Both the position numbers and the translations under genes were made by a program. The notes beneath the pieces were generated by a model. The model worked only from the letters and a program-made list of their open reading frames with translations, made no database searches and was not told where the DNA came from. Below, one piece after another: positions 3,726 to 62,401 of a stretch of 64,000 nt of DNA. The stretch lies in the sequence record AY587007.1. The stretch is one strand, 5' to 3'. Each line of letters starts with the position of its first letter. The first letter of the stretch is position 1. The stretch comes from Escherichia phage T5.

Positions 3726-4133
3726 TTATTCGCCTGCGGCTTGTTTTACTTCATCGGCAACGCCTAACAGTTGCGCCACGGCGTCCAGCGTTTCCAATTT
3801 TGCACTTTCCAGTGATGCCAGATCGTCAGCGTCTTTGATAATACCGGAATCGATGGCATGTTTTGCAATCACACGCACGTAGTGCGCTTTGCGGATAGAA
3901 CTGCCGCCGCCAACCTTGCGAGGTTTATCGCTTTTCTGATACGCTTTCGCGCTGGTCAATTTTGAGCGAACAGACACGGGAGAAGCCGCGCCAACTGCTT
4001 TTGCAATCTCTTTTAAACCGTCGCTATTTGCGAAATCTAAACCGTTTTCATTAATTAACTGCTGGTACATGGAAACAGCTTTCTGAGTGTTTTCTTCATT
4101 CCAAGCGAATTTTGCGGTTTTAGCGTTAGTCAT
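3726..4133 (-). CDS. A2-like small pre-early protein
   Basis: 135-aa ORF immediately upstream of A1 in transcription order; size fits T5 A2 (~15 kDa); identity is positional inference only. Confidence 0.4.
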   Translation of the reverse strand: MTNAKTAKFAWNEENTQKAVSMYQQLINENGLDFANSDGLKEIAKAVGAASPVSVRSKLTSAKAYQKSDKPRKVGGGSSIRKAHYVRVIAKHAIDSGIIKDADDLASLESAKLETLDAVAQLLGVADEVKQAAGE

Positions 4134-9078: not shown

Positions 9079-9329
9079 AACGATGGTTTAATCACTGGTA
9101 TAAACGGTTTTTAGTACGGCATCGCAAGTCTAGACAGCAAGATGATTGGCGGGAAATGGCCAAGCGTAACAATTGCCCACTTCTCTGATAACCGACGGGG
9201 ATCAGCTCCCCGTTTTTCACGCCTCCAGTTAAATCCCCCTTTGTTTTAGTATCCCCATCAAAATTAAACGCGTTAGAATGCGATCTAGGACGTTTTAGGC
9301 ATATATTAGAATTATTCACTGCGTAGGAA

Positions 9330-9349
9330 TACTGTATAAATATACAGTA
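9330..9349. promoter_or_regulatory. near-consensus LexA (SOS) box TACTGTATAAATATACAGTA
   Basis: 19 of 20 positions match the E. coli consensus TACTGTATATATATACAGTA. Confidence 0.55.
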
Positions 9350-9430
9350 GGATAACCTGGGGATAAGTCTGTTGATAACGCTTCAAAATGGCTAGGATTT
9401 TGTCAAGGCGAATCGTGCTGTTGATAAGTC

Positions 9431-9439
9431 TGTGGATAA
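9431..9439 (-). promoter_or_regulatory. DnaA box (TGTGGATAA, reverse complement of TTATCCACA)
   Basis: exact 9-mer; two one-mismatch copies (TTATCAACA) nearby at about 9371 and 9421. Confidence 0.5.
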
Positions 9440-9466
9440 CTTAAATAACAGTGTTTCTCACTTCCG

Positions 9467-9620
9467 TTTTTAAATACGAATCATTATCATTCGTATTCCG
9501 CTTTTTAAATGAGAATCATTCCGCTTTTTAAATGAGAATCATTTCACTTCCTGAATAGTTCTCATTCCCTTTCTTAAATGAGAATCATTATCATTTGCAT
9601 TTCACTTTTTAAATGAGATT
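9467..9620. repeat. five tandem-ish direct repeats of TTTTTAAATGAGAATCATT (variants included)
   Basis: copies at about 9467, 9502, 9525, 9571 and 9596; interleaved with the palindromic unit GAATCATTATCATTCG. Confidence 0.65.
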
Positions 9621-9672
9621 GATTCTCATTATCATTCGCATTCAGGCGAGCAGGCAATTGCCCTGCGCTTTT

Positions 9673-10409
9673 GTGCAAATCCGACATTTGCCCCCATGGA
9701 TTACGCGTGGGCGTGTATGTGCAAATCCGACAATTTTTGGTAGTGTGCGAATCCGACCCGAAAAATTTTTATAGTGTGCAAATCCGACAATGAATTTTCC
9801 CAAAAACTCCAGCAATCACGAACTGCGTTCGAATCCTGTGGAATTAGCTAGAGTATGTGCAAATCCGACATGTGTTGAGATGTGCGAATCCGACAAGATT
9901 TTTGTGACTTCGATGGGAGGGTGTGTGATTGTATGGGTTTGAGGGGAAGATGAGAGAGCGAGAGAAATTTGGGAGGCTAGAAGGATATGGGCGCAGGATT
10001 GGTGCGGAGCACCTGATTTGCGGGGATTTTGGGGAAGAGTTGAGATAATTTGGGAAGATTTGAGATAGGTGCAGAAAAAGTAAAATTTTATTAGCTAAAG
10101 GGGGCAAAATAGCTTGACAAGTGAAAATTTCTGTGGATCTAAAAACTCAGGCAATCATGGGCCTTCGGCCCGAAATAATGCTGCTATTTTCAGGAGAGTA
10201 AGAGTTCCTAAAAACTTAGGCGTTTGTGCAAATCCGACCATAAATTTCTAGAAACACAATGTGCAAATCCGACAGTAATTTCTGGAAATGTGTTTTCAAA
10301 AAATGTCTTCTAGAAATAACCGCCCTCCCTATAACCGCCCTGTATTAAACCGCCTATTGCTGGAGTTTCTAGGAACATGAAAACTGCCCTAGAGTATGTG
10401 CAAATCCGA
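9673..10409. repeat. nine dispersed copies of the 15-mer TGTGCAAATCCGACA (variant TGTGCGAATCCGAC)
   Basis: copies start at 9673, 9718, 9744, 9775, 9856, 9881, 10225, 10260 and 10397, all same orientation with irregular spacing; tenth copy inside a CDS at 12073. Confidence 0.7.
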
Positions 10410-10855
10410 TGAATATTTTTGTGTGATCCCTAGAATTTATACTTATCAATTTCCTAGAAACTCAGGAGTCTAGAAGAAAGTGTTGTGCCATCCTAGCAGA
10501 TGAGCGGCAACAGGTGTATCATCTTGAATGTAAATTATATGGTCAAAAGTTTTACTTTTATTTTAAATATAAGATCCCCCAGGGTTCTCATATAGAGCTT
10601 TGCCCCCGCCAGAAGGTCTCGTGATGTTTCTAGTAATTTATATTAAATTACTTATTAACTTGTCCTATCGCTCCGTATCCTCCGCTACAAGTTAGTAATT
10701 TTAAATTACTGAACCACCACACCTTCTGTGTGGCAACTCTAAATGGTTAATTCTATTAACTCATAGAGTTATGATAACATACATTTAGCTATCTGTCAAC
10801 GAAAGTTTGTATTTGAGTCTCGGTACAGGTATTGTGCACCGAGATATGCAGAGTA

Positions 10856-11821: not shown

Positions 11822-12430
11822 TTAATCCTTTTTATTCTCATTAATAACAGCTCCTAGTGCTTCAAGGATAGTATCATTTATACTCCCAGGCCTAAGATTA
11901 TTAAAGTGAGTAACATAGATGGGACTTTTAAAACCTTCAGTATCCACAGGTGCTACGCTTTTCATGTCAGATTCAAAAGCTTCTTGAGTATGTTTCAATT
12001 GTGCAGAAGGTCCATAATCTTCACCAACTCGATATGAGGAATTATTTTCTATAACGCCACCGCATGGAACATTGTGCAAATCCGACGTTATTTTAGGACT
12101 GTTCCACATTGTAATTGGCCCCGATTGCCACGGATCTCGAATAGTCACAGGAGTACTAGGACGGTTAACCTCAGTCTTCACAAGCTTATAACCAGCATCG
12201 ATTAGTGTATTAATTAGATTATCAGCGGGAATACGAGCCTTGCCAAAAATCTTACGAGCGTTGTTGAGCCTACCTTCAAAATCTTTACATGCTTTAATAT
12301 TAGTGTGTGCAAAGGTTAGCTTCATAGATTTGAACTGTACGGTAGCAGTTAAATCTTTAAAAGCATAATCCCACGTATTCAGTTCATGATCTGGTACTAC
12401 TTGAATAGATTGCTGTGCATATAAAGTCAT
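11822..12430 (-). CDS. hypothetical early protein
   Basis: 202-aa ORF; contains one copy of TGTGCAAATCCGAC at 12073-12086. Confidence 0.5.
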   Translation of the reverse strand: MTLYAQQSIQVVPDHELNTWDYAFKDLTATVQFKSMKLTFAHTNIKACKDFEGRLNNARKIFGKARIPADNLINTLIDAGYKLVKTEVNRPSTPVTIRDPWQSGPITMWNSPKITSDLHNVPCGGVIENNSSYRVGEDYGPSAQLKHTQEAFESDMKSVAPVDTEGFKSPIYVTHFNNLRPGSINDTILEALGAVINENKKD

Positions 12431-59614: not shown

Positions 59615-62401
59615 GTGTTTTCTATCCTCCAAGGTCACGCCGGATTTTCTCGTGATTTAGCAACAGGTATTTGGCGAGAAATCAAAGCGGAAGATTATAC
59701 CTTTGCCAAGCGATTCTCGAAAGAGCATCCAGAAGGTAAACCAGCTTCTATGCCCTTCAAATTTGATGTAATAGAAGAGCACGACCCACAAAGCCTTGCC
59801 GAAATGTTACCCCTCATGAGACGTTTAACGTCTGACCCTCATATCGTTGCGGTGCGAGGTCGATGTCTCGCACCTAAAAATAATGTGCGACGTAAGAAAG
59901 GTAACTTTAATGTATCTAATCCTAGTAATATTATTGCTATGGACGTGGATGGTATCCTAGATACCGGTGGGTATGACAAATTTAATCTTGTTGGTATGGC
60001 CCGCCACATTATTAAGATGTTGAATAGTATTAGTGAGGATATGTTTCCTCTTGATGCAGGGTTTATTGCTCATGCATCGTCTTCGGCTGGGCTAAAACCA
60101 GGTATCCGAATGCACTTAATGCTAGAATCTAACGTCAAGGTAACTCAGGGTCAGCTAAAGTTCTTATTTACATCTATCAACGATAGTAGTAAGCAAAAAT
60201 TTGGTTTTGATATTGCCGACCTAGCTTATTATTCATCTGTCCAGCTCCACTATTTTGCCGACCCCTTATTTAGCGATGGTATTGTTGATCCGTTTAAAGC
60301 GGAGAGTAAGCCACGTCTGGTGTATGTTAAAGGTTCGAAAGTAAATTTGCCCAATAATCTGGTTGACTATGAAACAACTAGAGGGGAGTTTAAGGAAGAG
60401 TTTTATTCTTTACTTGATCAAATTAAAGGCAAAAAGATTGCTTCTGATAAAGTAGAAGAAACCATCAGCGAGTTAGAAGAGGCTGATGATGGAGTGTATT
60501 TGCGTATTATCCCCAAACTATACCATAGAGCATTAGAGGATGGTGTTGATTTTGCATGGCTAGAACGTGAGATTAAACCAGCTTTATCTGAATATATTGC
60601 AACTAAAGATAACAGTCGTAATATTCAAGATTACTTTAATAACGGTCGTAAGCAGGCTCTCAAAGCGTTTGTTAATAATTCTAAACGTGAGATTCCATTA
60701 AATCTGAAAGGTGTTCCACTTAAGAAATTAGAAGTGGATTCTCCACCAGAAGTTCCATACCTGAAGATTAACATTGTGCCCCCAAAAGGCCATATAACAT
60801 TTGTTAAGGCAAGTCTTGGTACTGGTAAAACTACGGCAGTAACTAAATGGCTGGACGCAGGTGTTCTTCCAGGCAACTTTTTAGCAGTTACAAATACTAG
60901 AGCACTGGTATCTTCAAATGCCAAGAAATTTAGTGCAGGACAATACGATAAGTCTGTAGATATGCTCAACTTTAAACGTGGAGCTATCGATCGTATGTCC
61001 ACAACTATTCACTCTTTGCATAAGTTCAAAAGTTTTATTGGGCAAATAGACACCATTTTTATTGATGAATGTGACGCTGTAATGAATGACCTATTATTCG
61101 CCCCTGTTGTTAAACAACGTCGCGAGTGTATTCAAGTTCTACGTGACATCCTTATGACAGCTAAGACTGTAATCTTATCCGATGGTGATATTAGTGCTGA
61201 GACGATTGAAGCATATGGTTCTCTAATTGATTTTGATAAACCAGTAGCATTTTATAATCATCACCGTAAAATGCTGTCAAAAGCACACGCTTATGAGTTT
61301 CCTGATGAATCCAGTATTTGGGTTGCACTTCAGACTTCTCTAGAGATGGGTGAGAAATCTATTCTAGTATCTGATTGTGGCCCGGATGAGCTGAATGAGA
61401 AGGGTATGGCACTGCGTCGTAATACGGGTGCGTTAGTTAAGGAAATCCATTCAAACTCCACCTCAGATGTGGATATTCGACGTATTCTGGATTATACAAC
61501 TAATGAGCTAATTGATCAACAAATTGATTGCTTATTATGTAGTCCATCCGTAACGAGTGGCGTTGACTTTAACTATTTCGATAATGTGTTTGTTATTACT
61601 AGAACCAGTAATCAAGCGCCAAACATGCGTTTCCAAGCAATCAGGCGCGACCGTGGTGCCCAGAACATCTATTATTTTATTGATAAATCTACGAGTGGAT
61701 TCTCTGCAGGTTCTGAGCAATATAATATTGATGAAGGTTGGCTGGAGTTAGCACAGCAATTATACGCACGTCGTAGAGAGCTGGAATCTAGAAACTATAC
61801 TAGTACCTTACGTTATTATTTGCTTGATCAGGGTGCAACTATTGATATTTTCAGCGAAAGCTGGGGAACTATTGAAGGTGCTGGTAAAGAATATACAGAA
61901 GAGCGAATCAAAGCTATTCTGCATTCAACTCCAGATTATTGTGCCCCACGTCATGCAGATGCATATGAAGCTAAACTACTTCTTGTTCGCTATTATCATC
62001 TTGAGTCTATTAAAGATGTAACAGTTGAGCATGTCGAACAATATATCAAAGATAAACCGAATGATCGAGCTGCATTCTTCCATAAGATGCACGAGATGTT
62101 CTGGGAAGATATTAAGAAGTGTTCAAATGTGACCATTAAACCATTCATAGAGGCTCTGAAAGGTAAGAAGAAAGACTTCTTCCTTAAAACAGGTCAGAGT
62201 GCCAACCCAAAATATGCTAGAATGTATCTTGGTATGATGGGTATTGGTAAGGATATGAACACTGAAAATATTGTAGACTGGTACAGAACCTATTGTAAAA
62301 TCGAGTGTATGCCAATTCCTTTCAAATTCATGACAGAGGAAGAGAGGGCTATGGCAGAAGAAGTAATGTCCGAACTTGGAGCAACTAATGAAGATGCATA
62401 A
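59615..62401 (+). CDS. large Walker A/B NTPase, putative helicase / replication protein
   Basis: 928 aa, GTG start with RBS AGGAG; Walker A SLGTGKTTAV and Walker B IFIDECDAV. Confidence 0.55.
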   Translation: MFSILQGHAGFSRDLATGIWREIKAEDYTFAKRFSKEHPEGKPASMPFKFDVIEEHDPQSLAEMLPLMRRLTSDPHIVAVRGRCLAPKNNVRRKKGNFNVSNPSNIIAMDVDGILDTGGYDKFNLVGMARHIIKMLNSISEDMFPLDAGFIAHASSSAGLKPGIRMHLMLESNVKVTQGQLKFLFTSINDSSKQKFGFDIADLAYYSSVQLHYFADPLFSDGIVDPFKAESKPRLVYVKGSKVNLPNNLVDYETTRGEFKEEFYSLLDQIKGKKIASDKVEETISELEEADDGVYLRIIPKLYHRALEDGVDFAWLEREIKPALSEYIATKDNSRNIQDYFNNGRKQALKAFVNNSKREIPLNLKGVPLKKLEVDSPPEVPYLKINIVPPKGHITFVKASLGTGKTTAVTKWLDAGVLPGNFLAVTNTRALVSSNAKKFSAGQYDKSVDMLNFKRGAIDRMSTTIHSLHKFKSFIGQIDTIFIDECDAVMNDLLFAPVVKQRRECIQVLRDILMTAKTVILSDGDISAETIEAYGSLIDFDKPVAFYNHHRKMLSKAHAYEFPDESSIWVALQTSLEMGEKSILVSDCGPDELNEKGMALRRNTGALVKEIHSNSTSDVDIRRILDYTTNELIDQQIDCLLCSPSVTSGVDFNYFDNVFVITRTSNQAPNMRFQAIRRDRGAQNIYYFIDKSTSGFSAGSEQYNIDEGWLELAQQLYARRRELESRNYTSTLRYYLLDQGATIDIFSESWGTIEGAGKEYTEERIKAILHSTPDYCAPRHADAYEAKLLLVRYYHLESIKDVTVEHVEQYIKDKPNDRAAFFHKMHEMFWEDIKKCSNVTIKPFIEALKGKKKDFFLKTGQSANPKYARMYLGMMGIGKDMNTENIVDWYRTYCKIECMPIPFKFMTEEERAMAEEVMSELGATNEDA

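Follow-up and report, generated by a model that had tools for sequence, protein, structure and literature searches.

Co-oriented 15-bp repeats in two clusters straddle the terminal-repeat right end of phage T5 and of four relatives

In several well-described phages the packaging-initiation cut has short direct repeats beside it, on one flank or on both. At the pac site of SPP1 the cut is surrounded by three direct-repeat sets (boxA, boxB, boxC). The pac site of P1 has four plus three hexamers flanking the cut, and lambda cosB has the sites R3-R2-R1. The DRD repeats of phage T5, with which we are concerned here, resemble these sites in several respects: they are short direct repeats around the place where a packaging-initiation cut would be expected, they are non-coding and polar, where those sites are non-coding or overlap promoters, and, like them, they may go together with a small terminase that has an N-terminal helix-turn-helix domain. 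They differ in size, the array being far larger at 740 bp with a unit of 15 bp, and its nearest copies lie 86 and 244 bp from the presumed cut. A second group of comparable loci are the iteron-type replication origins, such as P1 oriR/incA, RK2 oriV and pSC101, and the ori/crr of phage P4, which is bound by the alpha primase-helicase. Here the likeness consists of DnaA boxes, an AT-rich block and co-oriented repeats in the classic order, and T5 encodes an initiator-like helicase. In contrast to iterons, which are phased at about 22 bp, the T5 copies are spaced irregularly at 25-344 bp, no rep gene is adjacent and the reported T5 origins are central. Finally, the core GTGCGAAT of the DRD motif may be compared with GTGCGAAC of HSV-1 OriS, and in a PDB search the modelled T5.108 protein was predicted to be closest in structure to the UL9 helicase; the OriS boxes, however, stand in inverted orientation about an AT spacer, and the T5 copies are all direct.

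The repeat region of T5 was reportedly characterised in 1987 by Heusterspreute et al. Public records annotate it as an injection stop signal. Davison (bioRxiv 10.1101/866236) describes nine DRD copies in a 1.2 kb untranslated region at 9194-10409 of the Hangzhou T5 sequence, a region that extends 270 bp past the terminal repeat and that 25 T5-like phages have in conserved form; the preprint refers to 1987 work for the characterisation of the region and to Wang et al. 2005 for the repeat nomenclature. The 64-kb stretch of DNA that we analysed (the window) represents the left 64 kb of the T5 genome; it has the coordinates of the Hangzhou sequence and is 99.9% identical to T5, and its array is the already described "nine DRD repeats" of T5 Repeat Region 3. 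In the literature accessible to us the DRD repeats are given no function, and we found nothing there about the constant placing of the repeat end between the clusters, about a drift of the motif in Vibrio and Aeromonas phages, or about a role in packaging. New is that the motif, together with its arrangement in two clusters, is found again across the sampled Demerecviridae genera even where the flanks no longer align, that the motif drifts in Vibrio and Aeromonas phages beside consensus DnaA boxes, and that in five records the terminal repeat has its right end at one and the same conserved sequence.

When we searched the window for TGTGCAAATCCGACA with up to two mismatches, we obtained ten matches, all on the plus strand, against an expectation of 0.03 from 100 dinucleotide shuffles. 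Nine of them form the array at 9672-10411, and the tenth stands alone (Table 1). An earlier note, made from the letters of the window, had proposed just such a nine-copy array in one orientation with a further copy at 12073 in a coding region; both are borne out, and the location was right although the exact positions were off by 1-2 nt. Five of the nine array copies are exact, two carry one mismatch and two carry two; the 13-mer TGTGCRAATCCGA is common to all nine, giving the consensus form TGTGCRAATCCGA(C/T)N. The start-to-start spacings are 46, 26, 31, 81, 25, 344, 35 and 137 bp and hence as irregular as the note had said, with 25-344 bp replacing its range of 20-330 bp. Likewise, the non-coding zone, put there at 1.5 kb, measures 1777 bp (9079-10855) and lies between convergent genes. 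The motif has sharp edges and amounts to roughly 26 bits when summed from the position table. Because the copies start in all three reading frames, as read from their coordinates, no repeated peptide is encoded. All 12 independent copies lie on the same strand (two-sided p ~5e-4 by our own calculation), showing that the array has polarity.

Extending the search to the whole T5 genome, we found the 12-mer core at no more than one mismatch 18 times, always on the plus strand, versus 0.84 expected. These matches are the nine array copies, the six that are repeated in the right terminal repeat, the copy at 12073 and a tandem pair in D13, from which we can conclude that the motif is not spread through the genome, in keeping with the rarity on which the note's proposal depended. 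The copy at 12073 lies in coding DNA, so that its conservation says little; several T5-like IMG/VR contigs have an exact 14-mer equally far from cluster 2, about 1.8 kb beyond it. The D13 pair is kept in Epseptimavirus, but within coding DNA that is itself 90-100% conserved, which makes its conservation uninformative. Cluster 1 is inside the left terminal repeat and is therefore also present in the right one, while cluster 2 lies in unique DNA just beyond the terminal repeat and occurs once per virion genome; in a concatemer, cluster 2 follows every terminal repeat. A CRISPR array, which the note had already set aside, was rejected, since a 15-nt unit spaced at 25-344 bp does not match repeats of 23-47 nt at near-constant spacing. 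The sole Rfam CRISPR match, DR34, reaches 21.6 bits against a gathering score of 35 and is located at another repeat (9558-9585).

Table 1. Features of the 1.8-kb spacer and candidate genes in the window (window coordinates).
Feature	Position	Strand	Basis or remark
Gene A2, candidate binder, essential pre-early DNA-binding protein	3726..4133	-	phrog_1725 'DNA binding protein'
Paired DnaA boxes, TGTTGATAA and TGTGGATAA types	9357..9440	+	Davison's candidate stop signal
AT-rich repeat block: TTTTTAAATGAGAATCATT x5, TCATTATCATTCGCATTC x3	9455..9643	+	GC 0.29-0.33
GCGC of annotated major single-strand interruption (7.9% nick)	9665..9668	-	AY543070 9748/9749
Sequence carrying the DRD motif: TATGTGCAAATCCGACAATTTTT			invariant positions TGTGC, CCGA
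DRD cluster 1: 9672-9686, 9718-9732, 9744-9758, 9775-9789, 9856-9870, 9881-9895	9672..9895	+	motif search
G-rich, purine-skewed tract, cluster 1 to terminus	9900..10075	+	GC skew
Conserved terminus block, candidate terminase cut site	10082..10180		column conservation 0.94-1.0
CTAAAAACTYAGG repeats at 10139, 10208 (exact) and 10454 (1 mismatch)	10139..10466	+	
Hairpin GGGCCTTCGGCCC inside conserved terminus block	10160-10172		
DRD cluster 2: 10225-10239, 10260-10274, 10397-10411	10225..10411	+	motif search
Six TTCTAGAAA-like palindromes, interleaved with DRD cluster 2	10245..10636		
AACCGCCCT repeats, interleaved with DRD cluster 2	10316-10355		
Lone tenth DRD copy, 1 mismatch	12073..12087	+	antisense strand of early gene T5.019
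T5.108, 'replication origin binding protein', UL9-like SF2 helicase, candidate binder	59615..62401	+	

When the final bases of the right repeat are compared with the window, the right end of the T5 terminal repeat comes to lie at 10139/10140, in the sequence ...TTGACAAGTGAAAATTTCTGTGGATC/TAAAAACTCAGG (the slash marks the end). The DRD array straddles this end, with six copies inside the repeat and three outside. The same junction, TGTGGMTC/TAAAAACTCAGG, is found in T5, BF23, Sepoy, MM-1 and Shivani, the ends of BF23 and Sepoy, two of these five records, coming from PhageTerm. In all five, cluster 1 precedes the repeat end by 242-278 bp (244 bp in T5), and the first copy of cluster 2 follows it at 86 bp. 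The repeat end of Stitch is within 4 nt of the common junction, and in chee24, saus132, Kenya-K20, T5 st0 and phi 3 it is annotated elsewhere within the array. The roughly 100 bp around the right end are the most conserved part of the region, and a TTGACA...CTGTGGCTC element in the gap between the clusters is seen in Sugarlandvirus and in Serratia phage Kamaji as well. The left genome ends, compared in Sepoy, MM-1 and Shivani, are not conserved; a conserved right end together with variable left ends is what one expects if the right end is the recognised one. Given the variable left ends we also rejected an inverted symmetry of the genome ends, which the T5 sequence might suggest with TCCAC 2 nt from each end.

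Among the relatives, a six-copy cluster 1 with the spacing 46, 26, 31, 81, 25 is also present in chee24, Stitch and saus132. Sepoy has the same layout within 3 mismatches, and BF23 and MM-1 have six copies at slightly different spacing. Two co-oriented clusters with a G-rich gap are found in Tequintavirus, Epseptimavirus, Sugarlandvirus, Kamaji and Shenzhenvirus, thus in every genus examined with clear copies, and VCPH shows roughly this layout. Within the Markadamsvirinae the column conservation is 0.93 for the DRD copies versus 0.84 for the spacers; the whole region is too conserved there for a footprint to be informative, and our argument therefore rests on the distant genera. In every Demerecviridae genus examined the motif is kept while the spacers diverge, and it changes with the lineage from TGTGCAAATCCGACA to GGTGCAAAACCGA, AAGTGCGAAATCTA and AGTACTTATCCGACA. 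The Aeromonas phage AhSzw-1 has replaced the GTGC half and retained the CCGACA half. In VCPH, phi 3 and AhSzw-1, true DnaA boxes stay consensus in the same loci in which the DRD motif is altered. A motif that drifts with the lineage while the DnaA boxes do not points to a phage-encoded, co-evolving binding partner other than DnaA. In an IMG/VR scan with the 14-mer, multi-copy loci were confined to contigs of 108-122 kb and one of 96 kb, which is the T5-like range, and single matches elsewhere were at chance level; a search of a plasmid collection gave no match. A protein-binding array, as suggested in the earlier note, is the most reasonable reading of the sharp edges, the roughly 26 bits and the lineage drift, and we regard it as partly supported. 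Partition, one of the functions offered for it, has nothing to support it, T5 being strictly lytic.

The repeat families to which the note had drawn attention beside the array are real: CTAAAAACTYAGG occurs three times, its first copy beginning at the last base of the terminal repeat, and the TTCTAGAAA-like palindromes number six. The AT-rich repeat block sits between the DnaA boxes and the array. The GCGC of the 7.9% nick is 3 nt left of DRD copy 1, and its minus-strand 3'-OH faces leftwards into the repeat. A GCGC element directly precedes the first DRD copy in AmPh_EK80, Kamaji, VCPH, phi 3 and AhSzw-1 too, and these five phages have G-rich tracts matching that of T5, where the GC skew is +0.52 to +0.73 in windows spanning 9850-10149. 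In AmPh_EK80 and Kamaji, too, CTAG-containing elements lie beside DRD copies. A search of the zone for promoters, terminators, Rfam families and coding potential found nothing: a sigma-70 promoter scan gave 7 promoter-like sites versus 5.2 expected, 0 of them in DRD copies, and the Rfam search gave no family at threshold.

Tentatively, and as something possible rather than probable, we read the DRD repeats as a small-terminase recognition array around the packaging-initiation cut. The 15-mers would be candidate sites for a co-evolving phage DNA-binding protein, most likely the small terminase T5.156, which is identified by its PHROG match (phrog_3802, E 6.5e-91) and encoded outside the 64-kb window. 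We infer binding itself, the identity of the binder and the direction of packaging. That the left end of T5 is injected first is documented; by the last-in-first-out rule of tailed phages the right end would then be packaged first, and the first cut of the concatemer would fall at the right edge of the terminal repeat, 10139/10140. If the initiation cut is so placed, as left-end-first injection suggests, the proximity of the array to the repeat end in five records would be of the pac/cos type. On the concatemer, six co-oriented copies would lie 244-467 bp left of the cut, on the side that enters the capsid first, and three further copies 86-272 bp right of it. An oligomeric small terminase seated on the array could position the large subunit on the conserved block and set the direction of packaging, and the DRD repeats would mark the packaging-initiation site of T5. 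Our literature search found no paper on a T5 pac site, and how long terminal repeats are made was stated as unknown in the literature of 2021. Against the terminase speaks that the small terminases of T5 and Sugarlandvirus are only 52% identical though the 15-mer is identical, compared with 66% for A2 and 79% for T5.108, that the nearest copies stand 86 and 244 bp away from the cut in an array larger than the known pac or cos sites, that several records put the repeat end at other places within the array, and that the copies at 12073 and in D13 have no adjacent cut site. [quoted passage not shown] Going further, one may speculate that the region is first of all a packaging and repeat-regeneration hub of long-terminal-repeat phages, in which the clusters and the terminus block form the packaging-initiation site and the 3'-OH of the GCGC nick primes duplication of the repeat. 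Strand-displacing synthesis by the T5 polymerase, leftwards from the nick, would duplicate the 10 kb repeat before cutting, and the array would meet the injection machinery of the next infection simply through being brought to the left end as part of the repeat. This larger scheme we consider unlikely.

The annotation of the region as an injection stop signal argues instead for a part in the two-step transfer of the DNA, and injection arrest was among the roles named in the earlier note. Here A2, with A1 at the membrane, would bind the 15-mers just past the stall and ratchet the DNA in or lift the block, so that the second step restarts; alternatively, the array would be part of the stop signal. 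We judge this somewhat unlikely. A2 is a DNA-binding, essential protein needed for second-step transfer, by a mechanism called unknown in the 2026 literature, and it is present in the examined array-bearing phages including phi 3, VCPH and AhSzw-1. The first DRD copy begins about 54 bp past the estimated first-step shear point at 9618, and co-oriented sites just downstream of a stall would suit a binding ratchet. But the position just right of the shear point also tells against such a role, because at the pause the copies would probably be in the tail or envelope channel, beyond the reach of a cytoplasmic protein. Purified A2 reportedly binds double-stranded DNA without known specificity, which likewise counts against it, and fewer Demerecviridae genomes are reported to carry A2 than A1. 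Davison, having compared 25 phages, prefers to see the stop signal in the DnaA boxes and the DRE repeats and gives the DRD repeats no role (10.1101/866236). Neither the fixed offset of 86 bp nor the placement of the repeat end between the clusters is accounted for by A2, and the straddled repeat end favours packaging at least as strongly as injection. Another conceivable binder is the host DnaA, with the 15-mers as low-affinity boxes that extend Davison's membrane-anchoring cluster. Read on the other strand, TGTGCAAAT becomes ATTTGCACA, an 8/9 match to TTWTNCACA, and the copies are oriented like the true DnaA boxes 230-315 bp upstream. Yet TCCGAC, the six bases beyond the 9-mer, vary no more than the 9-mer itself, and VCPH, phi 3 and AhSzw-1 retain TGTGGATAA at the true boxes while moving away from the DnaA consensus in the DRD motif, for example to AGTACTTATCCGACA. 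On the extent of the motif beyond the 9-mer and its drift in distant relatives we rejected a DnaA box cluster, which is very improbable.

A replication role for the array is possible. Its most explicit form, which appears improbable to us, takes the DRD copies as iterons of a theta-type origin that combines DnaA boxes, AT-rich repeats, the nick and co-oriented repeats, with T5.108 as the binder; leftward firing or extension of the nick could then duplicate the terminal repeat before packaging. The order of elements read from the sequence is origin-like, with the DnaA boxes and a block of 29-33% GC beside repeats that start at 9672, and the 3'-OH of the conserved nick faces leftwards through the repeat. 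Multiple origins of as yet unidentified sequence have been reported for T5, and T5.108 is annotated as an origin-binding protein; the best PDB matches of its model are HSV-1 UL9 bound to OriS (E 1.6e-14, versus ~2e-9 for generic helicases). Bases 2-9 of the DRD motif (GTGCGAAT) correspond at 7/8 to the reverse complement of UL9 Box 1 (GTGCGAAC). In Sugarlandvirus, where the motif is identical, T5.108 is conserved better than the other two candidates (79%), and its own divergence is greatest (38-46%) where the motif differs. The three proteins nevertheless diverge in parallel (terminase 52, A2 66 and T5.108 79% in Sugarlandvirus, about 40-46% in Vibrio phages), which favours T5.108 only weakly, and since homologues of all three are essentially confined to the Demerecviridae, their distribution outside that family does not discriminate among them. 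The lead from UL9 weakens on closer inspection. The C-terminal domain of T5.108, modelled alone (pLDDT 81.5), gave no significant fold match, to the UL9 DNA-binding domain or otherwise (best E 0.9), the similarity in sequence and profile is confined to the first RecA lobe (residues 389-533), and the RVKNL motif is absent, so that the resemblance to Box 1 is probably due to chance. In AhSzw-1, moreover, it is the GTGC half that is replaced and the CCGACA half that is kept. We therefore rejected UL9-type origin boxes GTTCGCAC, and with them the UL9 lead as evidence of a shared specificity, despite the best structural match and the 7/8 core. The array also lacks what typical iterons have, namely phased repeats of ~17-22 bp and an initiator gene in cis: its spacing is irregular with no helical phasing, and the T5.108 gene lies 50 kb away. 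The 8-mer forms no further clusters elsewhere in the T5 genome, and the electron microscopy cited in Davison's preprint places the origins near the genome centre (10.1101/866236).

In summary, the 1.8 kb spacer joins two questions of T5 biology, namely the stop of DNA transfer at 8% with its restart by A1/A2, and the making of exact 10 kb repeats. The DRD array is the most conspicuous conserved element at the spot where the transfer stops and the repeat ends. The bracketing of the repeat end at a fixed distance, together with the co-evolution of motif and lineage, leads to three binding hypotheses, for the small terminase, for A2 and for T5.108, and methods for the engineering of the T5 genome are now available. 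If the packaging reading is true, the public annotations of the whole region as an injection stop signal would need revision.

A motif search with TGTGCAAATCCGACA, allowing up to two mismatches, gave ten matches, all on the + strand, where shuffled sequences led us to expect 0.03. The nine 15-mers of one orientation and the extra copy at 12073 that the earlier note had reported are hence present. Five of the nine are exact and all nine share TGTGCRAATCCGA; their starts fall in all three frames and follow one another at irregular distances (46, 26, 31, 81, 25, 344, 35 and 137). With the 12-mer core at up to one mismatch, the whole T5 genome contains 18 sites where 0.84 would be expected, and again every one is on the + strand: the nine of the array, the six of cluster 1 once more in the right terminal repeat, the isolated copy at 12073 and two in tandem in the SbcC-like gene D13. 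The motif is thus confined rather than similarly frequent throughout the genome, and the array observation stands. The neighbouring repeat families CTAAAAACTYAGG and TTCTAGAAA-like are real as well. The zone is indeed non-coding, but it measures 1777 bp between convergent genes and not the 1.5 kb first estimated; scans of it showed neither a surplus of promoters nor an Rfam family. The D13 pair lies outside the window and consists of TGTGCAAATCCTACA followed head to tail by GGTGCAAATCCGACA on the + strand (AY543070 78935-78964; 16936-16965 of L009, the corresponding piece), with the nick annotated at 64.8% about 360 bp away. It is kept in the Epseptimavirus phages polluks and EscoHU1, but the surrounding coding DNA is 90-100% conserved anyway.

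Features of the repeat zone and the candidate origin-binding protein (window coordinates)
Feature	Position	Strand	Basis or detail
TCATTATCATTCGCATTC, small element, three copies in T5	9626-9643		
GCGC, T5 nick consensus (7.9% nick), directly before DRD copy 1	9665-9668		
DRD copies 1-9	9672-10411	+	motif search TGTGCAAATCCGACA
G-rich, purine-skewed tract with GGGAAGATGAGAGA-type repeats	9850-10100	+	GC skew +0.6 to +0.73
ATAACCGCCCT-type short repeats, just right of DRD cluster 2	10316-10355		
Near-consensus sigma-70-like promoter	10771-10799	minus	TTGACA, 17 nt spacer, TATCAT, upstream TG; 11/12
Tenth DRD copy	12073	+	motif search TGTGCAAATCCGACA
T5.108, 928-residue 'origin binding protein'	59615-62401		confident AlphaFold model

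The array is the already described set of DRD repeats. The preprint bioRxiv 10.1101/866236 takes this nomenclature from Wang et al. 2005 and dates the first description of the region to 1987; it favours paired DnaA boxes together with DRE repeats as the stop signal. New are the family-wide two-cluster layout, the drift of the motif by lineage, and an exact repeat end that is bracketed at a fixed place. A protein-binding array is a reasonable but unproven interpretation. Positions 9200-10700 share 99.9% identity with Escherichia phage T5 (AY543070, AY692264, NC_005859), and a search of a plasmid collection with this stretch gave no match. Base 1 of the T5 genome is the window start, and the coordinates appear to be those of the Hangzhou record AY587007, with an offset of -79 to AY543070 at 9-10 kb. 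In these coordinates, the public annotation has the left terminal repeat ending at 10140 and a major single-strand interruption at 9669/9670; when the genome end is compared with the window sequence, the right repeat is seen to finish at 10139.

The 15-mer, its orientation and the two clusters (in T5, six copies inside the left terminal repeat and three outside) recur in Tequintavirus (chee24, DT57C, MM-1, Shivani, BF23, Kenya-K20) and Epseptimavirus (Stitch, Sepoy, saus132, ende). They are found also in Sugarlandvirus (Klebsiella phage AmPh_EK80) and Serratia phage Kamaji, where the DNA around the array is beyond blastn alignment. The logo of 38 distinct sites reads (T)A-TGTGC[A/G]AATCCGA[C/T]A with sharp edges, followed after about 5 nt by a weak T tract. 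More distant relatives keep the layout with a drifted motif: V. cholerae phage phi 3 has GGTGCAAAACCGA and AGTGCGAAACCGA (about 13 copies, manual count), V. harveyi phage VCPH has AAGTGCG(A/G)A(A/T)TCTA, and Aeromonas phage AhSzw-1 has AGTACTTATCCGACA and AGTAGAAATTCGACC. Because the layout persists and the motif drifts while the true DnaA boxes of these loci stay TGTGGATAA, the DRD motif is bipartite and co-evolves with the phage, which argues for a phage-encoded binder rather than DnaA. When IMG/VR was scanned with the 14-mer, every contig with a multi-copy locus was of T5-like size (about 96-122 kb).

The surroundings of the array are shared too. GCGC stands directly before copy 1 in every lineage examined (T5, AmPh_EK80, Kamaji, phi 3, VCPH, AhSzw-1), so the 7.9% nick and the array start are linked family-wide. 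The G-rich tract between cluster 1 and the terminus has equivalents in the Klebsiella, Serratia, Vibrio and Aeromonas relatives, and the ATAACCGCCCT-type repeats occur in AmPh_EK80, Kamaji and AhSzw-1. In the AhSzw-1 spacer, TCATTATCATTCGCATTC is nearly unchanged as ATTATTATCATTCGCATTC (L146 6960-6985); the remainder of the spacer differs. Packaging of T7 needs transcription through the junction. The T5 promoter of the table lies just beyond the end of T5.018, is directed leftwards into the repeat zone and is not annotated in AY543070.

The junction between ...TTGACAAGTGAAAATTYYTGTGGMTC and TAAAAACTCAGG is the annotated repeat end in BF23 and Sepoy (both PhageTerm), MM-1 and Shivani; the annotated end of Stitch is 4 nt off. 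In all five of T5, BF23, Sepoy, MM-1 and Shivani, cluster 2 starts 86 bp past the junction and cluster 1 ends 242-278 bp ahead of it. Conservation in the roughly 100 bp around the junction is the highest of the region (0.94-1.0), and no conservation is seen at the left genome ends of these phages. The TTGACA...CTGTGGCTC element of the junction block is found also in the inter-cluster gap of AmPh_EK80 and Kamaji. Other public records (L003, L007, L015, L002, L138) are at odds with this one exact junction: the repeat is annotated to end about 35 bp past copy 6 in chee24 and saus132, between copies 1 and 2 in Kenya-K20, at the nick in T5 st0 and inside the array in phi 3. We regard these divergent ends as less precise. 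In phi 3, a 107 bp tandem duplication of 99% identity (L138 7635-7848) sits exactly at the annotated left-repeat end (7769) and may have arisen there in the assembly. The right repeat of AY543070 ends ...TGTGGCTC and the left copy in the window ...TGTGGATC; where the two differ, some other phages have A and some C.

T5 injects its DNA left end first. In tailed phages (lambda, T7, SPP1, P22) the last-packaged end exits first, and by this rule T5 packaging would begin at the right genome end, where a terminal repeat has its right edge. This edge is flanked in the concatemer by exactly the sequence at 9.6-10.4 kb, so that a terminase recognition site would have to lie there. The DRD array is the most conspicuous conserved, polar and repeated element around the putative cut, and T5.156 is a small terminase; we propose the array as a candidate T5.156 recognition site, the likeliest of the readings although somewhat short of an even chance. 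In that role it would be analogous to the direct repeats around the cut in SPP1 pac; lambda cosB and the P1 pac hexamers would be further analogues. Against the proposal, the small terminases of T5 and Sugarlandvirus are only 52% identical, yet the motif is identical; the SF6/SPP1 small-terminase domain binds its own pac repeats non-specifically; and the conserved terminus block may be enough alone. Strand displacement from nicks by the T5 polymerase is noted in the T5 sequence record. To combine this with the proposed packaging role into a packaging and repeat-regeneration hub is speculation: the conserved nick by copy 1 would leave a minus-strand 3'-OH directed leftwards through the repeat, and displacement from it would duplicate the repeat. 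T5 mutants without nicks are viable, however, which counts against an essential role.

It is rather doubtful that A2, an essential pre-early DNA-binding protein, binds the array and serves second-step transfer. The array start about 54 bp beyond the estimated shear point would fit a binding ratchet, but during the pause the copies should sit outside the cytoplasm, and the fixed geometry about the repeat end is left unexplained. Origin iterons bound by T5.108, a UL9-like helicase, we consider unlikely. DnaA boxes, an AT-rich block and repeats do follow in textbook origin order, and T5.108 is annotated origin-binding and, with 79% identity, is better conserved than the other candidates where the motif stays the same; the best PDB matches of its model (pLDDT 86.8) are the 2025 HSV-1 UL9-OriS structures (E 1.6e-14 versus about 2e-9 for generic helicases). 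The DRD spacing is irregular, however, and electron-microscopy reports place origins centrally; it is the layout alone that carries the origin reading.

Read as its reverse complement, UL9 Box 1 agrees with DRD bases 2-9 at seven of eight positions. We rejected shared specificity: the T5.108 C-terminal domain modelled alone (pLDDT 81.5) gave no significant fold match and did not hit the UL9 DNA-binding domain, sequence and profile similarity to UL9 ends at the first RecA lobe, and the Aeromonas phages have other bases in place of the GTGC half. The resemblance is best treated as coincidence. A structure search with the all-helical C-terminal 230 residues matched no known fold; D110, D112 and H167 are invariant in the N-terminal 390 residues, and some records label the protein primase. 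The DRD bases 1-9 agree with the DnaA consensus at eight of nine positions, and it is very improbable that the copies are low-affinity DnaA boxes, as the motif drifts in phages whose true boxes do not.

Together, the conserved layout, the lineage-specific motif and the bracketed repeat end give the historical "injection stop" label an alternative that can be tested.
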